A DNA stretch of 64,000 nt, from contig JANXRW010000070.1 of assembly GCA_025356655.1 (NCBI GenBank), forward strand, positions 16,620-80,619, in the 5' to 3' direction. This DNA comes from Betaproteobacteria bacterium (GTDB lineage Bacteria; Pseudomonadota; Gammaproteobacteria; Burkholderiales; SHXO01). The notes below the pieces were generated by a model. It had not been told where the DNA came from. It did no database searches and saw only the letters and a program-made list of their open reading frames with translations. The position numbers were made by a program, and so were the translations under genes. Below, piece after piece: positions 24,249 through 40,278 of the stretch (position 1 is its first letter; each line of letters begins with the position of its first letter).

Positions 24249-24369
24249 TTCCCTCCGGACTGTCTAGCTCCGGGAGACATGCCGCACACACCACGCGGTA
24301 GCCTTGCCGGTCGAAAATCGCGAAGCGGGTTTACTCCAAGTGCAGAAATTGCTGCCCGTCCTGCCCCAA

Positions 24370-27300
24370 ATGAGCCCTCAGCGCGCCGCCTGGATTGCCT
24401 TTGGCGCGGCGCTGGCCGTGACCGTCGTCCTTTGGCTAAGCGTCCGCGTAGCCGAGCGCGCGCGCGCCGAGGAGGACGTGCGTGCAAGGGCGGGGGCGCT
24501 GGCTTCGCGAGTCACCGATCGTTTGCGCTCCTACGAATTGCTCCTCAAGGGAGGCGATGCGCTGTTCGGGGCCACGGGCGAGGTCTCGGCGCCCAACCTG
24601 CGCGGTTACCTCGGGGGCCTCGGGTTGGCACGCAGCCATCCCGGGCTGCTCTCGGTTGGGCTGGCAATGGCCAGTACAAGCAGCGTGGAGCCGGCGGTCC
24701 CGACGCCCACTGGCGCACTCGGCTGGCGACTGTGGGCGCCGGTGACGGTGGTGCTCGGTAGCGGTAATCCGGGCGCCTTACCCACGGGCTCGGACCTACT
24801 GGCTGACGCTTCACAGCGGGCGGCCCTGCTGCACGCCCTACCCACGGGTGCCCCGGTGCTGTTGGCGGCTGGGTCCGCCGGAGCGCCCGGTCCGGCAACG
24901 CTGATCCTGACATTGCCCCTCTTCGCGCCCGAGGTGCCGGCCGCTGACACCGCCCGGTCAACGCAGGATCCGGACTCCCGCTTGCGTGGCTGGATCTTCG
25001 CCACCTTCGCCCTCGACGCGCTCCTTAGCCCGATGTCGGAACCGCCGGCGCCGCCCCTGGAGGTGACCCTGTTCGCCGGGCCGCAGATCCGCCCGAGCGA
25101 CCTCGTCTACCGCTCGGCCAACACATCGCCCCTCTCGTCCTCGGGCGGATCTTCCGCCGAGCGCTGTACAGCGCTGTCGCGGGCCGAGGTGGCTGGTGGT
25201 GCGTGGACGCTCTGCGCTTTGGCCAGTGAACCGCGCGGCGAGTCGCTCGGGGCGGTCTTGGTGCTGCTCTTGGGGCTTTCGGGAAGCGCCGGCCTGCTAC
25301 TCTGGGGCCGGGTGCTCCTCCGCGGTGCCCCCCCCGCCGCCCCGCGCATGGGACTCGTCCCCCTGCAACCGCTGCTCGACACGCTGCCCCAGCCCGTCGC
25401 GGTGCTGGACCGGCAAGGCCGGCTGATGCTGGTTAACCGCGCCTATGGCGAAATGGCCGGGTGCCCGAGCGGTGAATTGATCGGCCAGCGCCCGGTTGAG
25501 CACCTGGGGGATGCGCGTGCCCAACTGATCGGTCTGGCAGACGCCGCGGAGGCGGCCCTGGCCGAGCGCGAGGTCGGCTGGACCGGACCTGAGGGCGAGG
25601 TGCGCTGGCTGGCGTGGTATCGCCGGCCCCTGTCGGACAAGCCACAGCCTACGCTCGGCGTCGTCTGGACCGCGTACGATCTCTCTGGCGCGCGTGCCAG
25701 CGCGACCCAGGCGGCACAATTGCTGCAGGGCGTGCTCGATTCACTGCCCTTCCCGCTCCTGGTGCGGCGGGCCGACGGCGGGGTGCTCAACGCCAACACC
25801 GCGCTGTGCCGGCTGCTCGGTCGAGACCGCGAGGAACTCCTCGGCGCCCGTTGCGAGGTTGCTGAGCCAGAGGTCAATGGGCGTGGTTTGACCGAGGAGG
25901 CGGTTCGCCGCCACAAGGGCGAGGAGATTTGGGGGCGACGTAGCCACCGGGCGGTACCGTTGCCTGGGGTCGGCCCAATCTATGTCGAGGCGCTTGCCGA
26001 GGCCGACAGCCAAGGCACAGCGCGCGAGGCGGGCGGCAGCGAGGCCCAGCCGGGCCTGCTGAACGTTATTTCCCGCGCGGTCAGCGGCCGCGAGCCGCTC
26101 GGTGGTGTCCTGGGCGCCACGGTCTTGGCGCTAGCCGGGGAGTTCCCTGATTTCGAGGTGTTCTACGCTGTGGCCGACGCCCAGGGAGTGCTCACGGCGA
26201 CTCAGGCGGCTGGGTCCTGTCGCGTGCATCTCGCCAACCTGCAGATAGCCCTCGCGCAGGCGCCCGATTGGCGCGCGGCGCTGCAGCGTGGGCGGCCGCT
26301 CGTGGCGTCTGATGTGGGCTCCGCCGGTGGCCTGGGGGAGGTCCTGGCGCATCTTCGGGCTGCCGGCGTGGCCGCCCTGCTGCAATACCCCGTACTTTGC
26401 GAAGATCAATTGCACGGGACGATCGGCTTCGCGCTCGCCCATCCCCATTCCTGGGCGCCCGCGGAGGTTAGCCGGTTGGGCGGCGTGGCGGCCACCCTGG
26501 AGGTGATCTGCCATGGGGCCCGGGCTGAGCAGGTCCGTCTGCAGGCCGAGCAGGCGCTGCGCGAGAGCGAGCGCAAACTGCAACTCGCTGTGTCGACCTC
26601 CGGGGTTGGCCTTTGGCGGCTCGATCTCGCGAGCGGGTCCTTCGAGGGGTCGCCCCTGTGGCGGGACCTCCTCGGGATTTCGGCGCTGGGCGCGCCGTCG
26701 CATTTGGATCAGTGGCTGGAGTTGGTGCATCCGGAGGATCGCAGCCGCATCTGGGCGTATAACCACGACATCCGCGCCGGTAAAGCCATCCACTTCGAGG
26801 TGGAGTACCGTGCCCGGCATGGCGACGGCAGTTACCGCTGGTTGCTCTCCCGCGGTCGCGTGGAGCGCCGCCCAGATGGCCGTGCTGCCAGCATGTTCGG
26901 CGGCCATATCGACATTACGCCCCTGAAGCAGACACAGGAGGCGCTGCGCCAGCACCGCGATAACATGCAGCAACTAGTCGACGAGCGCACCGCTCAGTTG
27001 CGGGCGGCGAAGGACGCCGCCGAGGGGGCGAACTTGGCGAAATCACAGTTTCTGGCCAATATGTCGCACGAACTGCGTACGCCCATGCATGCAATCCTGT
27101 CCTTCGCACGGCTGGGCATGGAGCGCCTGCAGGAGGCGGAGCCCAACGTTGCGAAACTCAAGCAATATCTGGCGCGCATCACCGGCGGGGGCGAGCGCCT
27201 CCTGGGGTTGCTCAACGACTTGTTGGATCTCTCCAAACTCGAGGCCGGAAAGATGGGTTACCGGCTGGCGGAGACGGACCTTGAGGACCTTGTTCGGGAC

Positions 27301-27816
27301 GTTGCCGCCGAGATGGAGGCGATGGCCCGCCACAGGCAAGTGAACCTGGTCGTCATACGGCCCGAGGTCGCCACTCTCATCTGGGGCGACCGCGACCGGA
27401 TCGGCCAAGTCGTGCGCAACTTGCTCACCAACGCCCTCAAGTTTAGTCCGGAAGGATCCGAAATTCGTGTGTGTTTCACTGCCGACGCCTTGCCCGAGCC
27501 GCGCCACGAGTCCGATCAGCCCGTCCGTGACGCGGTGCGGGTGACCGTGCGGGATTCAGGGATCGGAATTCCAGAGGATGAATTAGAGATGGTCTTCGAG
27601 TCGTTCGTGCAGAGCAGCCAAACCTCTAGTGGCGCCGGCGGCACCGGCCTGGGGCTCGCCATCTGCCGTGAAATCATCGATCATCACCGAGGGGTCATCT
27701 GGGCCGAAAACAATCCCACGGGCGGTGCCTCAGTGAACTTCGCCCTTCCCCGCGCCCCTGCACCCCTGAGTCCGGCCGTAGCGCGGTCGGGCTCGCCTAA
27801 GGAGGTAGTGTTATGA
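24370..27816 (+). CDS. Membrane sensor histidine kinase (TM-CHASE-like-TM, PAS, PAS, GAF, PAS/PAC, HisKA, HATPase)
   Basis: Two hydrophobic segments flank a CHASE-like region; LVHPEDR...FEVEYRARHGDGSYRWLLSRG PAS/PAC; H-box FLANMSHELRTPM; NLLTNALKF, DSGIGI, GGTGLGLAI. Start lies between 24304 (TTG) and 24370 (ATG). Confidence 0.93.
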   Translation: MSPQRAAWIAFGAALAVTVVLWLSVRVAERARAEEDVRARAGALASRVTDRLRSYELLLKGGDALFGATGEVSAPNLRGYLGGLGLARSHPGLLSVGLAMASTSSVEPAVPTPTGALGWRLWAPVTVVLGSGNPGALPTGSDLLADASQRAALLHALPTGAPVLLAAGSAGAPGPATLILTLPLFAPEVPAADTARSTQDPDSRLRGWIFATFALDALLSPMSEPPAPPLEVTLFAGPQIRPSDLVYRSANTSPLSSSGGSSAERCTALSRAEVAGGAWTLCALASEPRGESLGAVLVLLLGLSGSAGLLLWGRVLLRGAPPAAPRMGLVPLQPLLDTLPQPVAVLDRQGRLMLVNRAYGEMAGCPSGELIGQRPVEHLGDARAQLIGLADAAEAALAEREVGWTGPEGEVRWLAWYRRPLSDKPQPTLGVVWTAYDLSGARASATQAAQLLQGVLDSLPFPLLVRRADGGVLNANTALCRLLGRDREELLGARCEVAEPEVNGRGLTEEAVRRHKGEEIWGRRSHRAVPLPGVGPIYVEALAEADSQGTAREAGGSEAQPGLLNVISRAVSGREPLGGVLGATVLALAGEFPDFEVFYAVADAQGVLTATQAAGSCRVHLANLQIALAQAPDWRAALQRGRPLVASDVGSAGGLGEVLAHLRAAGVAALLQYPVLCEDQLHGTIGFALAHPHSWAPAEVSRLGGVAATLEVICHGARAEQVRLQAEQALRESERKLQLAVSTSGVGLWRLDLASGSFEGSPLWRDLLGISALGAPSHLDQWLELVHPEDRSRIWAYNHDIRAGKAIHFEVEYRARHGDGSYRWLLSRGRVERRPDGRAASMFGGHIDITPLKQTQEALRQHRDNMQQLVDERTAQLRAAKDAAEGANLAKSQFLANMSHELRTPMHAILSFARLGMERLQEAEPNVAKLKQYLARITGGGERLLGLLNDLLDLSKLEAGKMGYRLAETDLEDLVRDVAAEMEAMARHRQVNLVVIRPEVATLIWGDRDRIGQVVRNLLTNALKFSPEGSEIRVCFTADALPEPRHESDQPVRDAVRVTVRDSGIGIPEDELEMVFESFVQSSQTSSGAGGTGLGLAICREIIDHHRGVIWAENNPTGGASVNFALPRAPAPLSPAVARSGSPKEVVL

Positions 27817-28718
27817 CGCGCCAAGCCCGACTGCTGGTAGTCGATGACGAAGAGATCAATCTCGAGATCATCAGTGAGTTCCTCGATGGCGAGCCCTATG
27901 ATCTGGACCTCGTCGATGGAGGGGAGGAAGCGCTCGAGCGGTTCGCCCAGGGCGTCGAATATGACGCGGTGATCCTTGATCGCATGATGCCGCGCGTGGA
28001 CGGAATGGAGGTGCTGCGGCGCATGAAGGCCGAGCCGCGCCTGCTGAATATCCCCGTCATCCTGCAGACCGCCGCCGCCGCGCCCGAACAGGTGGCCGAG
28101 GGCCTGCGCCTCGGCGCCTACTATTATCTGACCAAGCCCTATCACCGCGACTCTTTGCGGGCAGTCGTGCGATCGGCCGTGGGCACCTTCACCGCGACGC
28201 AGGATCTGGCGTCCGAGATCGACCGATACCAGGGGACACTCTCACTGCTCTACAGCGGCGTCCTGCGCTTTTGCACCCTGCGCCACGCGCGCTCACTCAC
28301 CGCGGCGTTGAGCGGGCTCGCGGCCGATCCGCAGAGCGCTTGCCTGGGGCTCGGGGAGTTACTGGTGAACGCCGTGGAGCACGGAAACCTGGGCATCACC
28401 TTTCATGACAAGGCGCGTCTGCTCTCGGAAGACCGCTGGGAGCAGGAGGTGGAGGCGAGGCTGGCATCTCCCCAGTATGCGGACAAGTACGTGGAGGTAC
28501 ATCTGGAGCGCGAGCAGGGTTTATTGAACATCACCATCCGGGATCAGGGCCCAGGCTTCGATTGGCAGCGCTATCTCGAACTCGACGAGGGCAGGGCGAT
28601 GTACCCGAACGGTCGAGGCATCGCCCTGGCGCGACATATCGGGTTTCGGTCGCTTGCTTACCGTGGTACGGGCAGCGAGGTTTTCGTGACGCTGGTCGCC
28701 GCGCCCGGCCATGCTTGA
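27813..28718 (+). CDS. Response regulator: REC fused to RsbW/SpoIIAB-like Ser/Thr kinase domain
   Basis: LVVDD, ILDRMMP, YLTKP; C-terminal LGELLVNAVEHGN, IRDQGPGFD, GRGIALAR; ATGA overlap with the kinase. Confidence 0.88.
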   Translation: MTRQARLLVVDDEEINLEIISEFLDGEPYDLDLVDGGEEALERFAQGVEYDAVILDRMMPRVDGMEVLRRMKAEPRLLNIPVILQTAAAAPEQVAEGLRLGAYYYLTKPYHRDSLRAVVRSAVGTFTATQDLASEIDRYQGTLSLLYSGVLRFCTLRHARSLTAALSGLAADPQSACLGLGELLVNAVEHGNLGITFHDKARLLSEDRWEQEVEARLASPQYADKYVEVHLEREQGLLNITIRDQGPGFDWQRYLELDEGRAMYPNGRGIALARHIGFRSLAYRGTGSEVFVTLVAAPGHA

Positions 28719-29916
28719 TACGGTGGAACGACCGCGCGAAATCACCACGCCCCGGCTGGCCGGACGCCCGCCGCGGGTGCTGGTCGTCGACGACTCGCGC
28801 ACCAACACGCTGTACCTGAGCGCGTTCCTCTCCGCCGAGGGCTACTCGGTACGCACCGCCGCCAACGGAGCCGAGGCGTTGGAACTGGCCTTCACCCCGG
28901 ACCCCGTCGATCTCGTGTTGATGGATGTGGTCATGCCGGTGATGGACGGGATCGAGGCCGCCGCCCGATTGAAGGCGCTGAGCACGGGCCGGCTTCTGCC
29001 CGTGTTGTTGGTGAGTTCTCTCGCCTCCGGGGACGATGTGCTTCGGGGCCTGGAGTCAGGCGCTGACGACTATCTCGTGCGGCCCATCAACCTGGGGGTG
29101 TTGCGGGCGAAACTGCGCTCCTGGCTGCGTACGCTCGACCTGAACAACCGGCTCGGGGCTGCCGTACAGTCGCTACGGGAGCACCAAGCGGTCGCCGACA
29201 CGGATCTCGAGATCGCCACGTCGGTGATCGGCAACCTAGTGCAGCGTAAGCGTCTCTCGGATCCGGTGTTGACCTGGATGGTCCGACCTTCGGCTCGCTT
29301 CAGCGGCGACATCGTCGCGGCGGAGCGCCCGTCGCCGGGTTTGTTCTATGCCTTGATTGCCGACGCTACGGGCCACGGCCTCGGTGCCGCCATCAGTCTG
29401 CTGCCGGTGCTCCAGGTTTTCTACGGCATGGCACGTAAGGGGCTGCCCCTGCCCCAGGTGGCTGCGGAAATGAATCAATGCCTACGCCAATACGTGCCCG
29501 CAGGGCAGTTCGTGGCGGCGACGCTGCTGTGCGCGGACGAAGAGCGCGGGACGGTCAGCGTGTGGAACGGTGGTATGCCTTCGGGTCTGACCATCTGCGA
29601 AGGGATGGCCTGGCAGGATCCACGTCTGGTTTCCCGCAATATGGCGCTGGGGATATTGGGTGCCGAGGAATTCAACGCCTACGTGGAGACCATTGAGTTG
29701 GAGCGCGGCGCGTCCATGCTGTTCTTCAGTGACGGCCTGCCAGAGGCCCTCAACCCCGCGGGTGAACCCTTCGGAGAGGCGCGCGTCCATGCCCTGGCGG
29801 CGGGCGGGTCGGTCAACGACATCGTGGCGCACCTGGAGCAGCATCTTCGTGGCGTTGCCGCGCACGACGACGTCTCGCTGATGATGTACCAGATGCCGTT
29901 ACGCGTTCCCGTTTAA
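28711..29916 (+). CDS. Response regulator: REC fused to SpoIIE/RsbU-type PP2C phosphatase
   Basis: VLVVDD, LMDVVMP; FSGDI, IADATGHG, FVAA, WNGGMP, FFSDGLPEA, HDDVSL. The conserved REC Lys is replaced (YLVRP). Confidence 0.9.
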   Translation: MLDTVERPREITTPRLAGRPPRVLVVDDSRTNTLYLSAFLSAEGYSVRTAANGAEALELAFTPDPVDLVLMDVVMPVMDGIEAAARLKALSTGRLLPVLLVSSLASGDDVLRGLESGADDYLVRPINLGVLRAKLRSWLRTLDLNNRLGAAVQSLREHQAVADTDLEIATSVIGNLVQRKRLSDPVLTWMVRPSARFSGDIVAAERPSPGLFYALIADATGHGLGAAISLLPVLQVFYGMARKGLPLPQVAAEMNQCLRQYVPAGQFVAATLLCADEERGTVSVWNGGMPSGLTICEGMAWQDPRLVSRNMALGILGAEEFNAYVETIELERGASMLFFSDGLPEALNPAGEPFGEARVHALAAGGSVNDIVAHLEQHLRGVAAHDDVSLMMYQMPLRVPV

Positions 29917-30009
29917 TTGGTGCGTCGCGCCACGACAAATTGGTGCATTGCGTCATGGCCGCGTCATGAAAGCGGCCCGCAGTCCTCTGTCGGCCTTGGG
30001 GTGAGGCTG

Positions 30010-30038
30010 TTGACAATCCCATGCCCTTTAGTTAGTGT
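30010..30038 (+). promoter_or_regulatory. sigma70 promoter of the PQQ dehydrogenase
   Basis: TTGACA (30010-15), 17-nt spacer, TAGTGT (30033-38). Confidence 0.7.
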
Positions 30039-30175
30039 GCGCAAACGCTAGCCCTCGGGCAAAGCGCCACCGGCCGAGATACCTGCAGGCTTTCGGCCGG
30101 GACAAGAACGAGTAGTTTCCGCGCACCGGTCATTCCAGACCGCACCGCGCATCCAACCGGGAGGTTTTTCCAAAA

Positions 30176-31921
30176 ATGTTGACTCCAAAGTCGCTTAAGC
30201 GAGCGGCGCTGTGCCTCGCTGCCACCGCAGCCTTCGGCACGTCCGGGGTGGTCTTCGCACAGGGCCTGGACGAAGCTGGCTCCAAGCTCTACCCGAACTA
30301 CGTCACCGACGACATGCTGCTGAATGCTGACAAAGATGCCAGCAACTGGCTGCTGTACGGGCGTGATTACCAGACGACCCGCTACAGCCCGCTGAAGCAG
30401 ATCAACAAGTCCAACGTGTCGAAGCTGGTTCCCGCCTGGAATCTGTCCTTCGGCGTGCTTGACGGCCAAGACAGCCAAGCTGTTGCCGTCAACGGCATGA
30501 TCTACGTGACCGCGTCCTACAACAAAGTCTTTGCCGTTGAAGCCGCCACCGGCAAGGTGGTTTGGAAGTACGAGCGCGAGTTGCCGGGCGATGTCTTCCC
30601 GAAACTGTGCTGCGACGTGGTTAACCGCGGCGTCGCCGTGTACAAGAACAAAGTGTATCTGGCGACCCTGGATGCGCACATCGTTGCCCTCGACAACACC
30701 AGCGGTAAGGTTGTCTGGGACAAGAAGATGGGTGACTACACCTACGCCGAAACCTTCACGATCATGCCCATGGCCCTGCGCGGCAAGATCATCTTCGGCA
30801 CGGCCGGCGCTGAGTACGGTGTCCGCGGCTGGATCAAGGCGATCAACGCTGACACGGGTGAACTGGCCTGGCAGACCTACACCATCCCCGCCCCCGGCGA
30901 GGCTGGCAACGACACTTGGCCCGGCGAGTCCTGGAAGTACGGTGGTGGTTCCGCCTGGATCACCGGTTCCTACGACAAGGACACCAACACGTTGTATTGG
31001 CCCGTTGGTAACCCCGGCCCCGACTTCGACCGCCACGTGCGCCTTGGTGACAACCTGTTCACCAACAGCACCCTGGTGCTCGATCCCGATAGCGGCAAGA
31101 TCCGTAGCTACTTCAACTACACGCCCAACGATCCCTACGATTACGACGGCGTGAACGAAGTCATCTTGACCGACGTTGGTGGGAAAAAGCTGTGGCTTCA
31201 CGGTTCGCGTAACGGCCATGTCTACGGCATCGACCGCGTCGCTACCAAGAAGACCGCCTATGGTCAGGAACACCAATGCGTCTGGGCCACCGCCCTGCAG
31301 CGCGTGAACTGGACCAAGCCGATCACCACCGGTAACAACTGCAAGCCGGTGTTCAACTACCCCGAGAAAGACGTGGTGTACGACAAGGTCACGACCGACA
31401 TCGCCCCCTCGCTTGACGGTGGTAAAGAGTGGCACCCGATGTCCTACAGCCATCGCACGCACATGGTCTACGTGCCGGTGTATGACTTCGCGATGGACCT
31501 GCAAGCGAAGAAGATGGAATGGAAGCGCGGTGAGTGGTACCTCGGCGCCAAAGTCCTGAACTTCAACGCCGGCGCTGGCCACATCAAGGCCTTCGATGCT
31601 GCCACTGGCAAGCTGGCCTGGGCCAAAGCCCAGAGCTACCCGGCCACGAGCGGTATCCTGACCACCGGCGGCGGGCTGGTGTTCTACGGGGATCCCGAAG
31701 GCTACTTCCACGCTCTGGACGACGAAACCGGCGAAGACCTCTGGGCCTTCCAGACCGGCTCCGGCATCCACGGCAACCCGACCACCTTCACGGCGAACGG
31801 CCAGCAGTATGTGTCGATCGTCTACGGTGCGGGCGGTGGCGGAATCTGGCCCCTGTTCTACTCCGAGTGGTACAAGCACCAGAACAAGGGCGGCGGTCTG
31901 TTCGTCTTCAAGGTCCAGTAA
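30176..31921 (+). CDS. Periplasmic PQQ-dependent dehydrogenase, methanol/ethanol family, predicted lanthanide-dependent
   Basis: Signal peptide; RYSPLKQIN; vicinal CC (LCCDVVNRG); GAEYGVRG; GNPGP; NDPYDYDGVNE (D-x-D); RNG; repeated A-x-D-x-x-T-G-x-x-x-W propeller motifs; no CxxCH. GGGAGG SD. Confidence 0.93.
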   Translation: MLTPKSLKRAALCLAATAAFGTSGVVFAQGLDEAGSKLYPNYVTDDMLLNADKDASNWLLYGRDYQTTRYSPLKQINKSNVSKLVPAWNLSFGVLDGQDSQAVAVNGMIYVTASYNKVFAVEAATGKVVWKYERELPGDVFPKLCCDVVNRGVAVYKNKVYLATLDAHIVALDNTSGKVVWDKKMGDYTYAETFTIMPMALRGKIIFGTAGAEYGVRGWIKAINADTGELAWQTYTIPAPGEAGNDTWPGESWKYGGGSAWITGSYDKDTNTLYWPVGNPGPDFDRHVRLGDNLFTNSTLVLDPDSGKIRSYFNYTPNDPYDYDGVNEVILTDVGGKKLWLHGSRNGHVYGIDRVATKKTAYGQEHQCVWATALQRVNWTKPITTGNNCKPVFNYPEKDVVYDKVTTDIAPSLDGGKEWHPMSYSHRTHMVYVPVYDFAMDLQAKKMEWKRGEWYLGAKVLNFNAGAGHIKAFDAATGKLAWAKAQSYPATSGILTTGGGLVFYGDPEGYFHALDDETGEDLWAFQTGSGIHGNPTTFTANGQQYVSIVYGAGGGGIWPLFYSEWYKHQNKGGGLFVFKVQ

Positions 31922-31962
31922 TACGGGCGTTGAATTCCGACTGATCCAAGTCTGAGTTCCTG

Positions 31963-31993
31963 GAAAGGAGGGCTTCGGCCCTCCTTTCTTTTT
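31963..31993 (+). terminator. Intrinsic terminator after the PQQ dehydrogenase
   Basis: GAAAGGAGGGC-TTCG-GCCCTCCTTTC followed by TTTTT. Confidence 0.92.
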
Positions 31994-32134
31994 GGCGGTC
32001 CGCTAGCCCCAGCGCGCCCCTCGGCGCACGGATGGGCCCCGCTCGCGGGAACTTCCCGGACACCCTGGAACGATCTGCCGGTGGGCCTTGTCCAAACGGG
32101 TGTCTTCCGAGGTGACGATAAATCAGGAGCGTAA

Positions 32135-32992
32135 GTGAAAAGCAACCGACTGAACAAACTGATTGGCCTGGCCGGGCTTGCCCTGTGCCTTTGTGGTTCT
32201 GCTTCCGCCCTTCGCGCGGAAGATGAGCAGGACCCTAATGAAATAAAGGACACCCTGCTGCGAGCGAAGGCCAAAGGCATCCTTGTCGCCTGCGCAGATC
32301 CCTACAACTATCCCTATTCGGCGAAGGATGCCGACCCCGCTGGGTTCGACGTGGAGATCTTCCGCGCCATCGCCAAACGGGCAGGGCTGCGGGCGGAGAT
32401 GTTCTGGACCGACACCGGCACGCGCGGTGGTCTCGGCCGGGCCTTCCGCCAATCCATCTTCGCCAAGCGCTGCGATATCTTCCTCGGCCTCTCTGACAGC
32501 GGGGACGATGATCAGCTGCAGAAGAAGTTGGTCTTTACATCCCCCTACATGAGCATGGGCTACGTCCTTGTGGTCCAAGGGGCCGCCGATAAGATGAAAT
32601 CGGTCGATGAGTTGATCGCGGCCAAGGTCAAGATCGGCGTGTCCATGTCCACGCCCATGGATGACTATCTGTTCATGAACAACATTCCACGCGGCTTGTA
32701 CATGGGCAGCCGGCGCGCGCTTGAGGGTATGTACAAGGGTGAAGTGGATGCGGCCATGGTCTGGTCCAGCTCCGTGGCTGAGAACCAGCAGCACTTCCCA
32801 GATGCCAAGTTCCATCTCGTCGACGGGTATGTACCCATGAAAGGGCAGCGCTTCAACAGTCGCTACGCCGTGCGAAAGGAAGACGAAAGCCTGCTCAAGT
32901 TCGTCAACGAGGCCATCGAGGATCTCGTCGCCAAGGGCGCCGTGCAGAAGATGGTGGGGAGCTACTCGGTTCCGTTCCTGCCGCCACTCTGA
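32135..32992 (+). CDS. MxaJ/XoxJ-like periplasmic binding protein (SBP family 3)
   Basis: Signal peptide; ACADPYNYPYS, GFDVEI, RCDI, FTSPY, GEVDAAMVW, AVRK; AGGAG SD before GTG; follows the dehydrogenase. Confidence 0.85.
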   Translation: MKSNRLNKLIGLAGLALCLCGSASALRAEDEQDPNEIKDTLLRAKAKGILVACADPYNYPYSAKDADPAGFDVEIFRAIAKRAGLRAEMFWTDTGTRGGLGRAFRQSIFAKRCDIFLGLSDSGDDDQLQKKLVFTSPYMSMGYVLVVQGAADKMKSVDELIAAKVKIGVSMSTPMDDYLFMNNIPRGLYMGSRRALEGMYKGEVDAAMVWSSSVAENQQHFPDAKFHLVDGYVPMKGQRFNSRYAVRKEDESLLKFVNEAIEDLVAKGAVQKMVGSYSVPFLPPL

Positions 32993-33074
32993 GTCCAAGG
33001 GGTGCGCTCAGGCGTCTCGGCGAGCGAGACGCCTGCCAAGGGGGCTGCCAGGACTCTGGCGGCCCCCGTTTGCT

Positions 33075-33651
33075 TCTACACGTAGGCCCGCGGTGACGAT
33101 CTGTCGCACGCAGCCGCCGCTCTCAATGGCTGCGACGAAGGCTTCTGCATAGTCCCCGAAGGAGATGTGGCTGCATCCGTCGGCGCCGCTGATCAGGGTG
33201 TCTACACCCACCTTGTAGCCCCCCTGACGAGGCCCTGGGCTGATTTCCGCGGGCGGCGCGAAGGAGGTTCCAGTCGAGGTCCTCGGGTTGGCGCAGCACG
33301 CCTAGGGCTTCGCGGTGCGCCCGAGCGATGGCTTTGTAGGCGGCGGGGAAGCTGGGCGCGTCCACCCGTTGCAGGCCCGGGGCAACCAGCAGACTGCCGG
33401 CCCCTCCCACCACTACGACACGCTTCAGGTCGTCCAGCCGCGCGGCACCAATCAGAGACCCCGCGAGGCGGACCACCCCGTAGCGTTCGCCGGCGAAGTG
33501 CAGCGGGGTCGAACACGTCCACTTGGCGTTACGCGCCGGGCGCCTGGGAGCTGGGTTCGGGGGCGCGGTGACCTTGATGGCCGCGGCTGACCAACGCTGC
33601 TGCGATGATCTTGCCGCTCTGGCCGTTGGCACCGATCAGGACGGTTTTCCT
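33075..33651 (-). pseudogene. Decayed NAD(P)H-binding oxidoreductase (YwnB / NADH-flavin reductase-like)
   Basis: Fragments in several frames: (AGG in place of ATG)KTVLIGANGQSGKIIAAALVSRGHQ / VDVFDPAAL / KRVVVVGGAGSL...LDW / TSFAPPAEISPGPRQGGYKVGVDTL...SHISFGDYAEA. Confidence 0.85.
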
Positions 33652-33714
33652 GGGACGTCGGTATAAAAAAATGTAAATACGGCAGCACCAATAAAGGGTA
33701 AAAAAGTTCGACGG

Positions 33715-34137
33715 CTAGGCGGTTTCACCCTCAGCGCCTGAAAGACCTGCCCCAGCAGTCAGACTGCCCAGAGCATCCACTAGGGCCGCCTCGGCCTCAT
33801 TGATGACGGCTTCGAGCACCAGCATGATCGCCTGGCCCACCCGGGCATGCGGGATTGGGAGGCCGGCGCGGAAGGCCCAGCAGGGCCCCCGCGTCAACTG
33901 CAAGGAGACCTCACGCAGGGTAACTAACTCCGGCGTGCGCGCTAACACCGTCCCACCGGAACTCCCCCGGCGCGAGCGTGTCAATCGAACAATCGTGAGC
34001 TGCGTGATGAGGCGCCGGATCGTCGCCGCGCTCCTGTTAACACGTGAGGCGATGACGGAAGATGGCAATGGGCGGTTCTCTACGGTCAAGTGGCACCGCA
34101 CATGAACGGCCACGGCGAAACGAGAACTGGTGTTCAA
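33715..34137 (-). pseudogene. Degenerate Rrf2-family regulator (YwnA-like)
   Basis: SSRFAVAVH, SSVIASRVN, RGSSGGTVLAR, VTLREV; the conserved PNPACP segment is in another frame, between two compensating indels. Confidence 0.75.
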
Positions 34138-34373
34138 TCACGATCATTAATATGGGTCCGTGCTGCTTACAAACATGCTGCAATGCAACTGGCTTTTGGT
34201 GCGAAATTTCCTTGCCCAGAAGGCCCTCCAGGGCGATGTGCATCTTGCCTTTACGGAGGAATAACTGGATCATCTCCGCTTCGAAACGGGATCCGGAATT
34301 TTTCCGGAGCCAGCGCACCGCAACTCTATCGTGCGGCGCCCGTCCCGCAATCTACCAGAGGAAAGATAAGCAA

Positions 34374-34841
34374 ATGTCTCACGCTTTTTCCGCGGCCCTG
34401 CGCAAGTTTCGCACCGCTTTGGTGCTGTTCGCCGTGGTGTTGGGAGTCGCCTCGGCCCTGATTCTTAACCCCTCGTCGGCCCTGGCGAACGCCGACGATG
34501 ACGAGCGCGCCGAGCGTGCCGAGCGTCTGGCGAACGATATGCCCGTGCCCATGGATGACCCGGCAGCCGTCGAGTCCGGCAAGGGCCGTTTCGGTGAGCG
34601 CTGTGGATACTGCCATGGTGGTGGTGGTCGCGGCGCCAAAGGCCCGTGCTTGGTCTGCGGCCACTTCAAGCGCGGCGGCAAGAGCTCCGCGATCTACACG
34701 AACATCGCTGTGGGCGTGATGGGCACGCAGATGGGGGCTTTCGGTACCAGCCTGAGCAGTGAGGAAATCCTGAACATCGTGGGCTACCTGCGCAGCGAAA
34801 CGCGCAGGCGCGACGCCTCCGGCGAAAACGCCCCGCACTAA
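34374..34841 (+). CDS. Periplasmic class I c-type cytochrome (probable electron acceptor of the PQQ dehydrogenase)
   Basis: Signal peptide ending ALA; GKGRFGERCGYCHG heme motif; distal Met in GTQMGAF; LSSEEILNIVGYLRS; extra CLVC. Confidence 0.88.
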   Translation: MSHAFSAALRKFRTALVLFAVVLGVASALILNPSSALANADDDERAERAERLANDMPVPMDDPAAVESGKGRFGERCGYCHGGGGRGAKGPCLVCGHFKRGGKSSAIYTNIAVGVMGTQMGAFGTSLSSEEILNIVGYLRSETRRRDASGENAPH

Positions 34842-34904
34842 AAGTACCCGCAGGGCCGGTCGCGGCTGCAATGGCTCGCGGTCGGCCTACGTGCCTGGCG
34901 CCCG

Positions 34905-35351
34905 CTAGGCTCGCCCGGTACTCCCAAAGCCGCGCGTGCCCCGACTACTCTCCTGGAACTCGTCTACCACTCGGAACGCGGGTCGGATGACGGGCACCAC
35001 CAACAGTTGTGCTATGCGCTCCAGGGGTTCCAGGACGAAGGGCTTGGCTCCGCGGTTCCAGAGTGATACCAGTATCTGTCCCTGGTAGTCCGAGTCGATC
35101 AGTCCCACCAAGTTGCCCAGCACCACGCCGTGTTTGTGCCCCAAACCGGAGCGTGGAAGGACCACGGCCGCAAAGCCGGGATCGTCCAGGTGCAGGGCGA
35201 TTCCGCTCGGCACCAGTTCGGCCTGTCCGGCCTGCAAAACCATCGGCTCCTCGATGCAGGCCCGTAGGTCCAAACCGGCCGAGCCCGGGGTTGCGTAGGC
35301 AGGGAGGCGTTCCCGAAGGCGTGCGTCCAGGATTTTGATGTCCACGATCAT
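34905..35351 (-). CDS. dut: dUTP diphosphatase
   Basis: [37 protein letters not shown]. Confidence 0.97.
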
Positions 35352-38972: not shown

Positions 38973-40151
38973 TCAGACGTAGCCGCGAAGGGTGCGGGAG
39001 AAATCTTGTAGCGGTGCGATGCCGCTTAGCTCGGCGCGCCGACACCAGTCTTCCAACTGCGACAGCAACTGCTCCTTGGAGGCCGTGGAGCGAGCCCACA
39101 GAGCGCTTAGCTCCTGGCGCATGGAGACGATGGTGTCGAGTACGGTACTGGCTTTGCGCGCCTCTTCCAGGTGCGCTCGGTCGTTGGCCTCGAGCGCGGC
39201 CGTGTCGCGATGCAGCCAGCGCTTCAGTTGGGCCGGATCCACCCGGTAGCCGTGCTGACGCAGCGTCTCCAGTTCAGCGCCCCAGGCTCGCCTCAGGCTG
39301 CGCACGAAGCGCTGCACCACCTCGTAGCGATGGGTGATGACGGCCTGCAGTGTATCCAGGTCGCAAACCGCCTTACCTGGGTCGATGCGTAGCCGTGGCG
39401 CTAGCTTGCGTACTTTGGCGAGGCCCAGGATCTCCAGGAGGCGAATGTACATCCAGCCGATGTCGAACTCGTACCATTTGGCAGAGAGCCGGGCGGAAGT
39501 GCCATACGCGTGATGGTTGTTGTGAAGTTCCTCTCCGCCGATGAGGATCCCCCAGGGCAAGATGTTCGTGCTGGTGTCCTCGGTTTGAAAGTTCCGATAT
39601 CCCGAGTGATGACCGACCCCGTTGATCACACCCGCGGCCAGCACGGGGATCCACAGCATCTGCACCGCCCAGATGACGACCCCGACGACGCCGAAGAGAA
39701 TCAGGTCGACCAACAGCATCAGTGACACGCCCAGCACGGAGTGATGGTACACATTACGTTCCATCCAATCGTGCGGGGTGCCGTGGCCGTACCGCTCGAT
39801 GGTCTGCGCGTCGGCAGCGGCCGCCCGGTACAACTCTGCACCGTGCGTCACCACGTGCTTCAAGCCGAGCACCTTGGGGCTGTGCGGGTCTTCCGCGGTC
39901 TCCACTTTCGCGTGGTGCTTACGGTGCACGGCTGTCCACTTCTGCGTCTCCATGCCGGTGGTCATCCACAGCCAGAATCGGAAGAAATGGCTCACCGCCG
40001 GGTGCAGATCCAGGGCTCGGTGCGCCGAGTGGCGGTGCAGGTAGATCGTGACCCCGGCGATGGTGATGTGGGTTACCGCCAGCGTGAAGACCACGTAACC
40101 CCACCAGGGCAGCGACAGCACGCCCGCCGCCAGCGCGAAGATGTATTCCAT
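38973..40151 (-). CDS. Delta-9 acyl-lipid/CoA desaturase (DesA-like)
   Basis: His boxes YLHRHSAH, HRKHH, EELHNNHH; WYEFDIGW. Confidence 0.93.
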   Translation of the reverse strand: MEYIFALAAGVLSLPWWGYVVFTLAVTHITIAGVTIYLHRHSAHRALDLHPAVSHFFRFWLWMTTGMETQKWTAVHRKHHAKVETAEDPHSPKVLGLKHVVTHGAELYRAAAADAQTIERYGHGTPHDWMERNVYHHSVLGVSLMLLVDLILFGVVGVVIWAVQMLWIPVLAAGVINGVGHHSGYRNFQTEDTSTNILPWGILIGGEELHNNHHAYGTSARLSAKWYEFDIGWMYIRLLEILGLAKVRKLAPRLRIDPGKAVCDLDTLQAVITHRYEVVQRFVRSLRRAWGAELETLRQHGYRVDPAQLKRWLHRDTAALEANDRAHLEEARKASTVLDTIVSMRQELSALWARSTASKEQLLSQLEDWCRRAELSGIAPLQDFSRTLRGYV

Positions 40152-40278
40152 GGAATTGAGATGTCCCTTTGTTGGAAGCCAGCCCGAATTATACGCTTGT
40201 ACGCGACCGCGCAACGTGCTCTAGCGCGCTAACCCCTTGTTCCAATTAGCGGCTTGGCGCACACAAGCTTGAGAGCGC

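Follow-up and report, generated by a model that had tools for sequence, protein, structure and literature searches.

Does a stretch of DNA from an uncultured soil or sediment betaproteobacterium encode a lanthanide-dependent oxidation system outside the known families of such enzymes? The stretch (contig JANXRW010000070.1, 64,000 nucleotides (nt), hereafter the window) carries a gene for a 581-residue dehydrogenase of the kind that uses pyrroloquinoline quinone (PQQ), followed by genes for a J-like periplasmic binding protein and a c-type cytochrome. A first-pass annotation made from the sequence had proposed that the three form a lanthanide module belonging to neither XoxF nor ExaF/PedH. The explanation that we favor, with a probability of about 70%, is a periplasmic PQQ-dependent lanthanide-type alcohol dehydrogenase of an uncharacterised clade, accompanied by a binding protein and a c-type cytochrome of its own.

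The dehydrogenase matches the Pfam PQQ family (E 1e-58) and scores 568.1 bits against the NCBIfam model TIGR03075, "PQQ-dependent dehydrogenase, methanol/ethanol family" (cut-off 480.05; model positions 5-530 of 530). Its AlphaFold2 model, built from 66 input sequences, has a predicted local distance difference test score (pLDDT) of 92.4 and a predicted template modelling score (pTM) of 0.91. The best Foldseek matches of the model are eight-bladed PQQ alcohol dehydrogenases throughout, with the ethanol dehydrogenase PedH of Pseudomonas putida KT2440 (6ZCW) at the top (template modelling score (TM) 0.86, 38% identity). TM values range from 0.85 to 0.87 for PedH, XoxF, MxaF and ExaA, and identities are 35% to ExaA, 32-34% to XoxF2/XoxF5 and 31-33% to MxaF. 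The N-terminus, judged by eye, resembles a Sec signal, and residues 1-30 of the model have a pLDDT below 60. The residues named in the first-pass annotation (C145, C146, E213, N279, D322, Y323 and D324) were all confirmed by script at their positions. The protein is a methanol/ethanol-family PQQ dehydrogenase with an eight-bladed propeller, a vicinal Cys pair and Glu/Asn/Asp metal ligands.

The case for a lanthanide is carried by these ligands. In an alignment with PedH (6ZCV; numbering as in the literature), E213, N279, D322 and D324 pair with E199, N281, D323 and D325, the four residues given as Pr3+ ligands in the accessible part of a 2024 review (PMC11845868). D324 had been proposed as the counterpart of the XoxF-type lanthanide-binding Asp, and its pairing with D325 in that ligand list bears this out. 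The D-x-D motif is defined in the available methods text of Voutsinos 2025 (PMC11996626) by a second Asp two residues past the catalytic Asp, and the Ca-type motifs given there have Ala, Ser or Thr where this enzyme has D324. Among the 120 closest family proteins, 119 keep D-Y-D and the remaining one has D-D-D, which puts the second Asp in 120/120 (regex-based counts, with five "misses" that are uninspected regex variants). D-x-D is also the majority state among the wider relatives, at 115 of the 135 rows of the larger tree described below. Judged from these residues, the prediction that the enzyme uses a lanthanide through E213, N279, D322 and D324 is well founded, and a requirement for a rare-earth metal is very probable.

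Bit scores against solved structures set the enzyme apart from the characterised families. PedH is the best sequence match (6ZCW/6ZCV, 375 bits), followed by ExaA (344), XoxF (276-308) and MxaF (265-273), whereas two PedH-family anchors give PedH scores of 886 and 916 bits and ExaA scores of 734 and 728 bits, and XoxF/MxaF enzymes score about 560-650 bits to one another. A XoxF5 anchor (P0171; 999 bits to 6OC5, 561-652 bits to other XoxF/MxaF structures) reaches 380 bits to PedH, similar to the score of our enzyme. The PedH-family anchors are three genes that a pattern built on the PedH motif picked out in 3 of 401 genomes of the class, and two of these genes were scored; P0130 and P0133 were rejected for this purpose because PDB labelling gave them only a distant likeness to PedH. 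In a search of 1.84 billion representatives clustered at 50% identity, the nearest full-length matches were two sister clusters, P0124 and P0125, each 53% identical to the enzyme, and the remaining full-length matches were at 44% or less. Members of ten neighboring clusters are environmental throughout, and a motif search found no PedH-family member among the 150 best representatives.

Two trees agree with these scores. The first (FastTree, 135 rows) holds the enzyme, five paralogs from its genome, 18 hand-picked loci of its clade and 111 of the 150 best representatives (520-800 aa), 39 fragments or long fusions being left out; in it the clade of the enzyme forms one group with P0124 and P0125 (support 100). 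The second (IQ-TREE, LG+G4, with the Shimodaira-Hasegawa-like approximate likelihood ratio test (SH-aLRT) as its only support measure) holds 67 rows: the three PedH-family anchors and 64 rows chosen by hand from the first tree. Here the PedH family, the XoxF group and a third group, which we take to be quinohaemoprotein enzymes, form a clade of 22 rows (support 94), and the clade of our enzyme (12 rows, support 100) lies outside it. The three anchors form a clade of their own on the XoxF side (SH-aLRT 98, or 100 with P0136 added), the third, L092, being almost identical to L091. The trees and the agreeing bit scores therefore place the enzyme inside no characterised clade among the PDB-labelled anchors; the mismatch with XoxF and ExaF/PedH suspected in the first-pass annotation thus holds, the enzyme falling in neither the XoxF/MxaF nor the PedH/ExaF clade. 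The scheme of types 1-9 and of XoxF1-5 reportedly goes back to Keltjens 2014. We found no bench work on the clade in the literature searched, which is no proof of its absence.

To compare gene order, species-representative genomes were scanned for relatives of the enzyme, the best 80 of 159 were kept, and their loci were searched with the window proteins by tblastn. All 80 come from metagenome-assembled genomes, mostly of Burkholderiales/Betaproteobacteria with a few of Alphaproteobacteria, Rhodospirillaceae and Rokubacteria, and their dehydrogenases are 64-87% identical to the one in the window. The J gene lies directly after the dehydrogenase gene in every locus with at least 1.1 kb of room (70/70), the cytochrome gene follows J in every locus with at least 1.75 kb (69/69), and 59 of 68 have dut no more than 3 kb downstream. 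The J stop codon and the cytochrome start codon of the closest relative are separated by about 25 nt. The module in the window is a real, conserved three-gene set that encodes a predicted lanthanide/PQQ alcohol dehydrogenase. The conserved order is the part of the proposed dehydrogenase-J-cytochrome module that stands; the likeness of its two smaller proteins to known partners does not, as both score far below the MoxJ/MoxJ_2 and MoxG cut-offs. The order itself (F-J-G) had been read as that of xox and mxa clusters alike, and it is that of mxa, whereas xox operons usually run F-G-J.

The spacer between the dehydrogenase and J genes holds an intrinsic-terminator-like hairpin, whose centroid fold is at -22.5 kcal/mol (z -2.67). 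In 71 of 73 related loci this spacer contains a hairpin that folds at -12 kcal/mol or better and is followed by a T run, though its sequence varies, and the dehydrogenase is therefore probably expressed above J and the cytochrome. A TTGACA at 30011 was considered as a promoter element and is unsupported, a sigma-70 scan of 29800-34950 having given 0 sites.

The J-like protein has the fold of a solute-binding protein (SBP) in its AlphaFold2 model (pLDDT 87, 37 input sequences). We call it J-like because of its position, its fold class and the lack of transporter genes: no ATP-binding cassette (ABC) permease or ATPase gene was found beside it with Pfam and NCBIfam profiles. A third J-like protein of the source genome, on contig C141 (39729-40898), scores 66 bits against the quinoprotein-associated model TIGR03871 and carries a long extension at its N-terminus; a tblastn search of the contig yielded no PQQ dehydrogenase.

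The cytochrome matches Cytochrome_CBB3 (E 2e-8) and Cytochrom_C, both above the Pfam cut-off. Its reading frame had been started at 34062, a start that is over-extended and overlaps the minus-strand Rrf2 gene; the ATG at 34374 has a ribosome-binding site and a signal peptide and matches the orthologs. With one CxxCH, present in 71/71 orthologs, a distal Met region in the conserved segment QMGAFG and predicted export, the sequence is that of a class I c-type cytochrome. In 66 of 71 orthologs a second CxxC follows the haem motif after 12-15 residues, and this extra pair may form a disulfide or a metal site.

Table 1. Features of the dehydrogenase locus, in window coordinates.
Feature	Position	Strand	Description
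PQQ-dependent alcohol dehydrogenase (P0001)	30176..31921	+	581-aa open reading frame, predicted to be exported
Vicinal Cys145-146 of P0001	30608-30613	+	
E213 of P0001	30812-30814	+	
N279 of P0001	31010-31012	+	
D322-Y-D324 of P0001	31139-31147	+	
Intrinsic-terminator-like hairpin	31962..31993	+	12-bp GC-rich stem, UUCG loop, T run; directly 3' of the dehydrogenase gene
J-like periplasmic family-3 solute-binding protein	32135..32992	+	285 aa, GTG start, SBP_bac_3 E 5e-14
Insertion between J and cytochrome genes	32993-34373		1.4 kb, intact Rrf2 gene and broken NAD(P)H-binding gene
Decayed NAD(P)H-binding oxidoreductase gene	~33060..33660	-	frame scattered over three frames; partial NAD_binding_10 match
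Rrf2-family transcription regulator	33715..34137	-	140 aa, Pfam Rrf2 E 2e-15
Monohaem c-type cytochrome	34374..34841	+	155 aa, ribosome-binding site, signal peptide, CxxCH and extra CxxC

J and the cytochrome had been described as following the enzyme, and both are indeed present downstream, but in the window about 1.4 kb and two minus-strand genes separate the cytochrome from J. None of the best 80 related loci gave an Rrf2 or NAD-binding match by tblastn, and the insertion is therefore peculiar to the window locus. Contigs from four sequencing runs of one study (X1-X4) reproduce the insertion; the window DNA may itself stem from two of these runs, X1 and X2. One 7350-nt contig of X1 covers 31471-35000 with no differences, and contigs of X3 and X4 cover 32598-33830 and 33869-34945, again with no differences and with the decayed gene reproduced without gaps. 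Since independent contigs span both junctions, the insertion is not a binning artefact. Repeats flanking the insertion amount to short chance-level matches, and no mobile-element signature was found.

Upstream of the dehydrogenase gene (24304-29916) lie a CHASE-PAS-GAF sensor kinase, a fusion of a receiver with an anti-sigma-type kinase and a fusion of a receiver with a PP2C phosphatase. Of 68 related loci, only 20 have the receiver-PP2C gene next to the dehydrogenase gene, and a regulatory link is therefore doubtful. Elsewhere in the window, the C-terminal tail of a DesA-family fatty acid desaturase (38973-40214, minus strand) matches the "DesA/ISL3 alpha bundle tail", a domain shared with ISL3 transposases.

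The source genome (G000), 68.6% complete, is assembled into 165 contigs totalling 3.8 Mb. The first-pass annotation had reported neither pqq nor lanthanide-uptake genes in the window, in agreement with our Pfam scan of 37 further window open reading frames, and had pointed to the rest of the genome for the former, where pqqB, pqqC and pqqE are found on contig C60. pqqC is likewise present in 5/5 ortholog-bearing genomes checked. The genome encodes five further PQQ dehydrogenases (contigs C155, C139, C100, C35 and C161), each with D-x-D, for a total of six enzymes, none of them Ca-type. The paralogs on C100 and C35 are without the vicinal Cys pair, and downstream of that on C139 lies a dihaem cytochrome c. 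The C161 paralog (L085:7214-10219) has D-Y-D and is followed by a 403-aa protein in which a J-like domain (TIGR03871, 92 bits) is joined to a monohaem cytochrome c (CAHCH), an arrangement which suggests that J and the cytochrome are functionally linked; among solved structures, XoxF2 is the best relative (447 bits) of P0139, the representative nearest to this paralog.

Of 201 sampled genomes of the order, 19 carry an ortholog of the window dehydrogenase at 73% identity or more; they are distributed over five families and include 5/5 genomes of the genus. Besides the ortholog, G003, G099, G083, G089, G189, G045, G034, G137 and G078 have a second copy at 47-51% identity; this copy possibly represents the sister clade of P0124 and P0125, and it was not found in the incomplete source genome.

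A mechanism consistent with these observations would run as follows. The enzyme would be exported to the periplasm, bind PQQ supplied by the genome's own pqq genes and bind a light lanthanide through E213, N279, D322 and D324. It would oxidise a small alcohol, and possibly an aldehyde too, and pass electrons to the adjacent monohaem cytochrome c, its likely acceptor, and from there to the respiratory chain. The J-like protein would assist in some way, as methanol dehydrogenases are assisted by XoxJ and MxaJ. We infer the lanthanide dependence, the acceptor role of the cytochrome, the role of J and the substrate. For the substrate we tentatively favor ethanol-type short-chain alcohols or aldehydes, at a little below even odds; something other than these or methanol is somewhat unlikely. 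A bolder proposal, which we consider rather unlikely, is that the clade makes up a third and independent line of lanthanide enzymes, next to XoxF and ExaF/PedH, with a co-evolved CcoP-like cytochrome (with its extra CxxC) and its own J, whose substrate is neither methanol nor ethanol, or which is the main methanol enzyme of widespread uncultured Burkholderiales without a canonical XoxF.

Several observations weigh against the reading of the locus as a lanthanide dehydrogenase with dedicated partners, and they bear first on the partners. The best NCBIfam match of J is the quinoprotein-associated TIGR03871 at 75.3 bits (cut-off 212), and against MoxJ (TIGR03870) it scores 44.2 bits (cut-off 258). 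The cytochrome reaches 26.2 bits on the MoxG model TIGR03872 (cut-off 147.8) and is nearer to CcoP haem domains (50 bits), its best matches, than to cytochrome cL (2C8S, 22 bits). With both proteins below the curated cut-offs and with no special likeness of the J model to XoxJ apparent among the top matches listed, the earlier description of the lanthanide module as complete is not demonstrable. The insertion that splits the J-cytochrome pair in the window may also disturb their co-expression. The scores of J and the cytochrome are what one would expect if J were an amino-acid-type transport receptor and the cytochrome a general respiratory one, both mere neighbors of the dehydrogenase, and other points fit this view: J scores 51.5 bits against the amino-acid binder AncCDT-1 and 27.8 bits against XoxJ (N-terminal half only), amino-acid binders lead the Foldseek matches of its model with XoxJ (6ONP) absent among the top matches listed, and a terminator-like hairpin separates J from the dehydrogenase. 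We nevertheless consider chance neighborhood very unlikely, given that the order holds in all of the loci with room for it, including metagenome-assembled genomes of Alphaproteobacteria and Rokubacteria with different flanks, that no ABC permease or ATPase genes adjoin J, that even its weak best match is to a quinoprotein-associated model and that a J-cytochrome fusion adjoins a paralog. The metal assignment also has its counterweights. D-x-D is a predictor only, and no lanthanide-uptake genes were identified among the window open reading frames, those of the lanmodulin, lut/TonB receptor and PedA1A2BC types not having been searched for genome-wide. The enzyme might then use Ca2+, or either metal, as PedH is said in the accessible part of the review (PMC11845868) to coordinate Ca2+ when rare earths are absent, and as the available text of Voutsinos 2025 (PMC11996626) describes mixed metal motifs within single families. 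Against a misleading motif stand the conservation of all four PedH ligands as listed in that review, the second Asp in every family protein counted and the uniform D-x-D state of the six PQQ dehydrogenases of the genome, and we regard this alternative as quite improbable.

An enzyme that serves methanol oxidation in these uncultured Burkholderiales, as a functional analogue of XoxF outside the XoxF clades, is a different proposal about substrate, and one that we judge unlikely. It would account for the mxaFJG-like order, for the conservation of the three-gene module and for dehydrogenases 72-86% identical across families, as expected for a core energy enzyme; the source genome also encodes a glutathione-dependent formaldehyde dehydrogenase (602 bits, above cut-off). 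fae is present in 2/5 ortholog-bearing genomes, namely in 2/2 of those from other families, but was not found in the source genome at its 68.6% completeness or in three genomes of the same genus that are 97-100% complete (0/3), and the methanol reading is weakened as a result. RuBisCO is present in only 3/5 ortholog-bearing genomes and was not found in the incomplete source genome. PedH and ExaA, both ethanol enzymes, are slightly closer to the dehydrogenase than XoxF and MxaF are, and no methylotrophy genes lie beside the module. Nor is there an aldehyde dehydrogenase or other catabolic gene beside it, a point that counts against the favored reading as well; its neighbors are dut, coaBC and radC, and the context is therefore silent on the substrate.

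Returning to the lanthanide-type dehydrogenase of an uncharacterised clade, we compared the module with systems of known function. It shares with PedH, of the ExaF/PedH family of lanthanide ethanol dehydrogenases, the eight-bladed propeller, the vicinal Cys pair and, by the ligand list of the review excerpt (PMC11845868), all four metal ligands, the extra Asp among them, but at 38% identity it falls far from the scores of true family members, which group with XoxF and the putative quinohaemoprotein enzymes, apart from the clade of the window enzyme, in the IQ-TREE analysis. With XoxF (XoxF2 4MAE, XoxF5 6OC5/6DAM, XoxF1 7O6Z) and its partners XoxG and XoxJ it has in common the D-x-D motif and a c-type cytochrome and periplasmic binding protein alongside, whereas the identity to XoxF is 32-34% and neither J nor the cytochrome resembles the XoxJ/XoxG type in score. 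The order of dehydrogenase, J and cytochrome is like that of the Ca methanol dehydrogenase cluster MxaFJGI; unlike MxaFJGI, the window has no evident small-subunit gene between or after its genes. Here, too, Asp replaces the Ca-type Ala/Ser/Thr reported in the available text of Voutsinos 2025 (PMC11996626). ExaA, the Ca2+ ethanol dehydrogenase of Pseudomonas aeruginosa (1FLG), has the same fold, vicinal Cys pair, Glu, Asn and first Asp, but D-F-S in place of D-Y-D. By its title, cytochrome cGJ of Methylacidiphilum fumariolicum SolV, a XoxG-XoxJ fusion, resembles the J-cytochrome fusion on contig C161 but not the separate J and cytochrome genes of the window.

D-x-D clades lacking bench data are already widely predicted in silico, and the present prediction is of a commonplace class and no surprise. 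According to the available text of Voutsinos 2025 (PMC11996626), 61% of marine PQQ dehydrogenases carry the lanthanide-type motif, and most members have it in 14 of 17 families, while the accessible part of a 2026 preprint (10.64898/2026.07.10.737718) speaks of "15 clades" of predicted eight-bladed lanthanide-type PQQ enzymes. Bench-shown lanthanide users are, in the accessible parts of Voutsinos 2025 and of the review (PMC11845868), XoxF1, 2, 4 and 5 and ExaF/PedH ("type 2b") only. The clade described here is a good target for bench work: it is tightly conserved, keeps the four ligands and has a fixed pair of partner genes that could be co-expressed, and the genome of its lineage, with six D-x-D enzymes but none of Ca type, adds to its value. 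Characterising the dehydrogenase would test the reach of the D-x-D rule beyond the two families studied, and characterising the module would also reveal what J-type proteins do.

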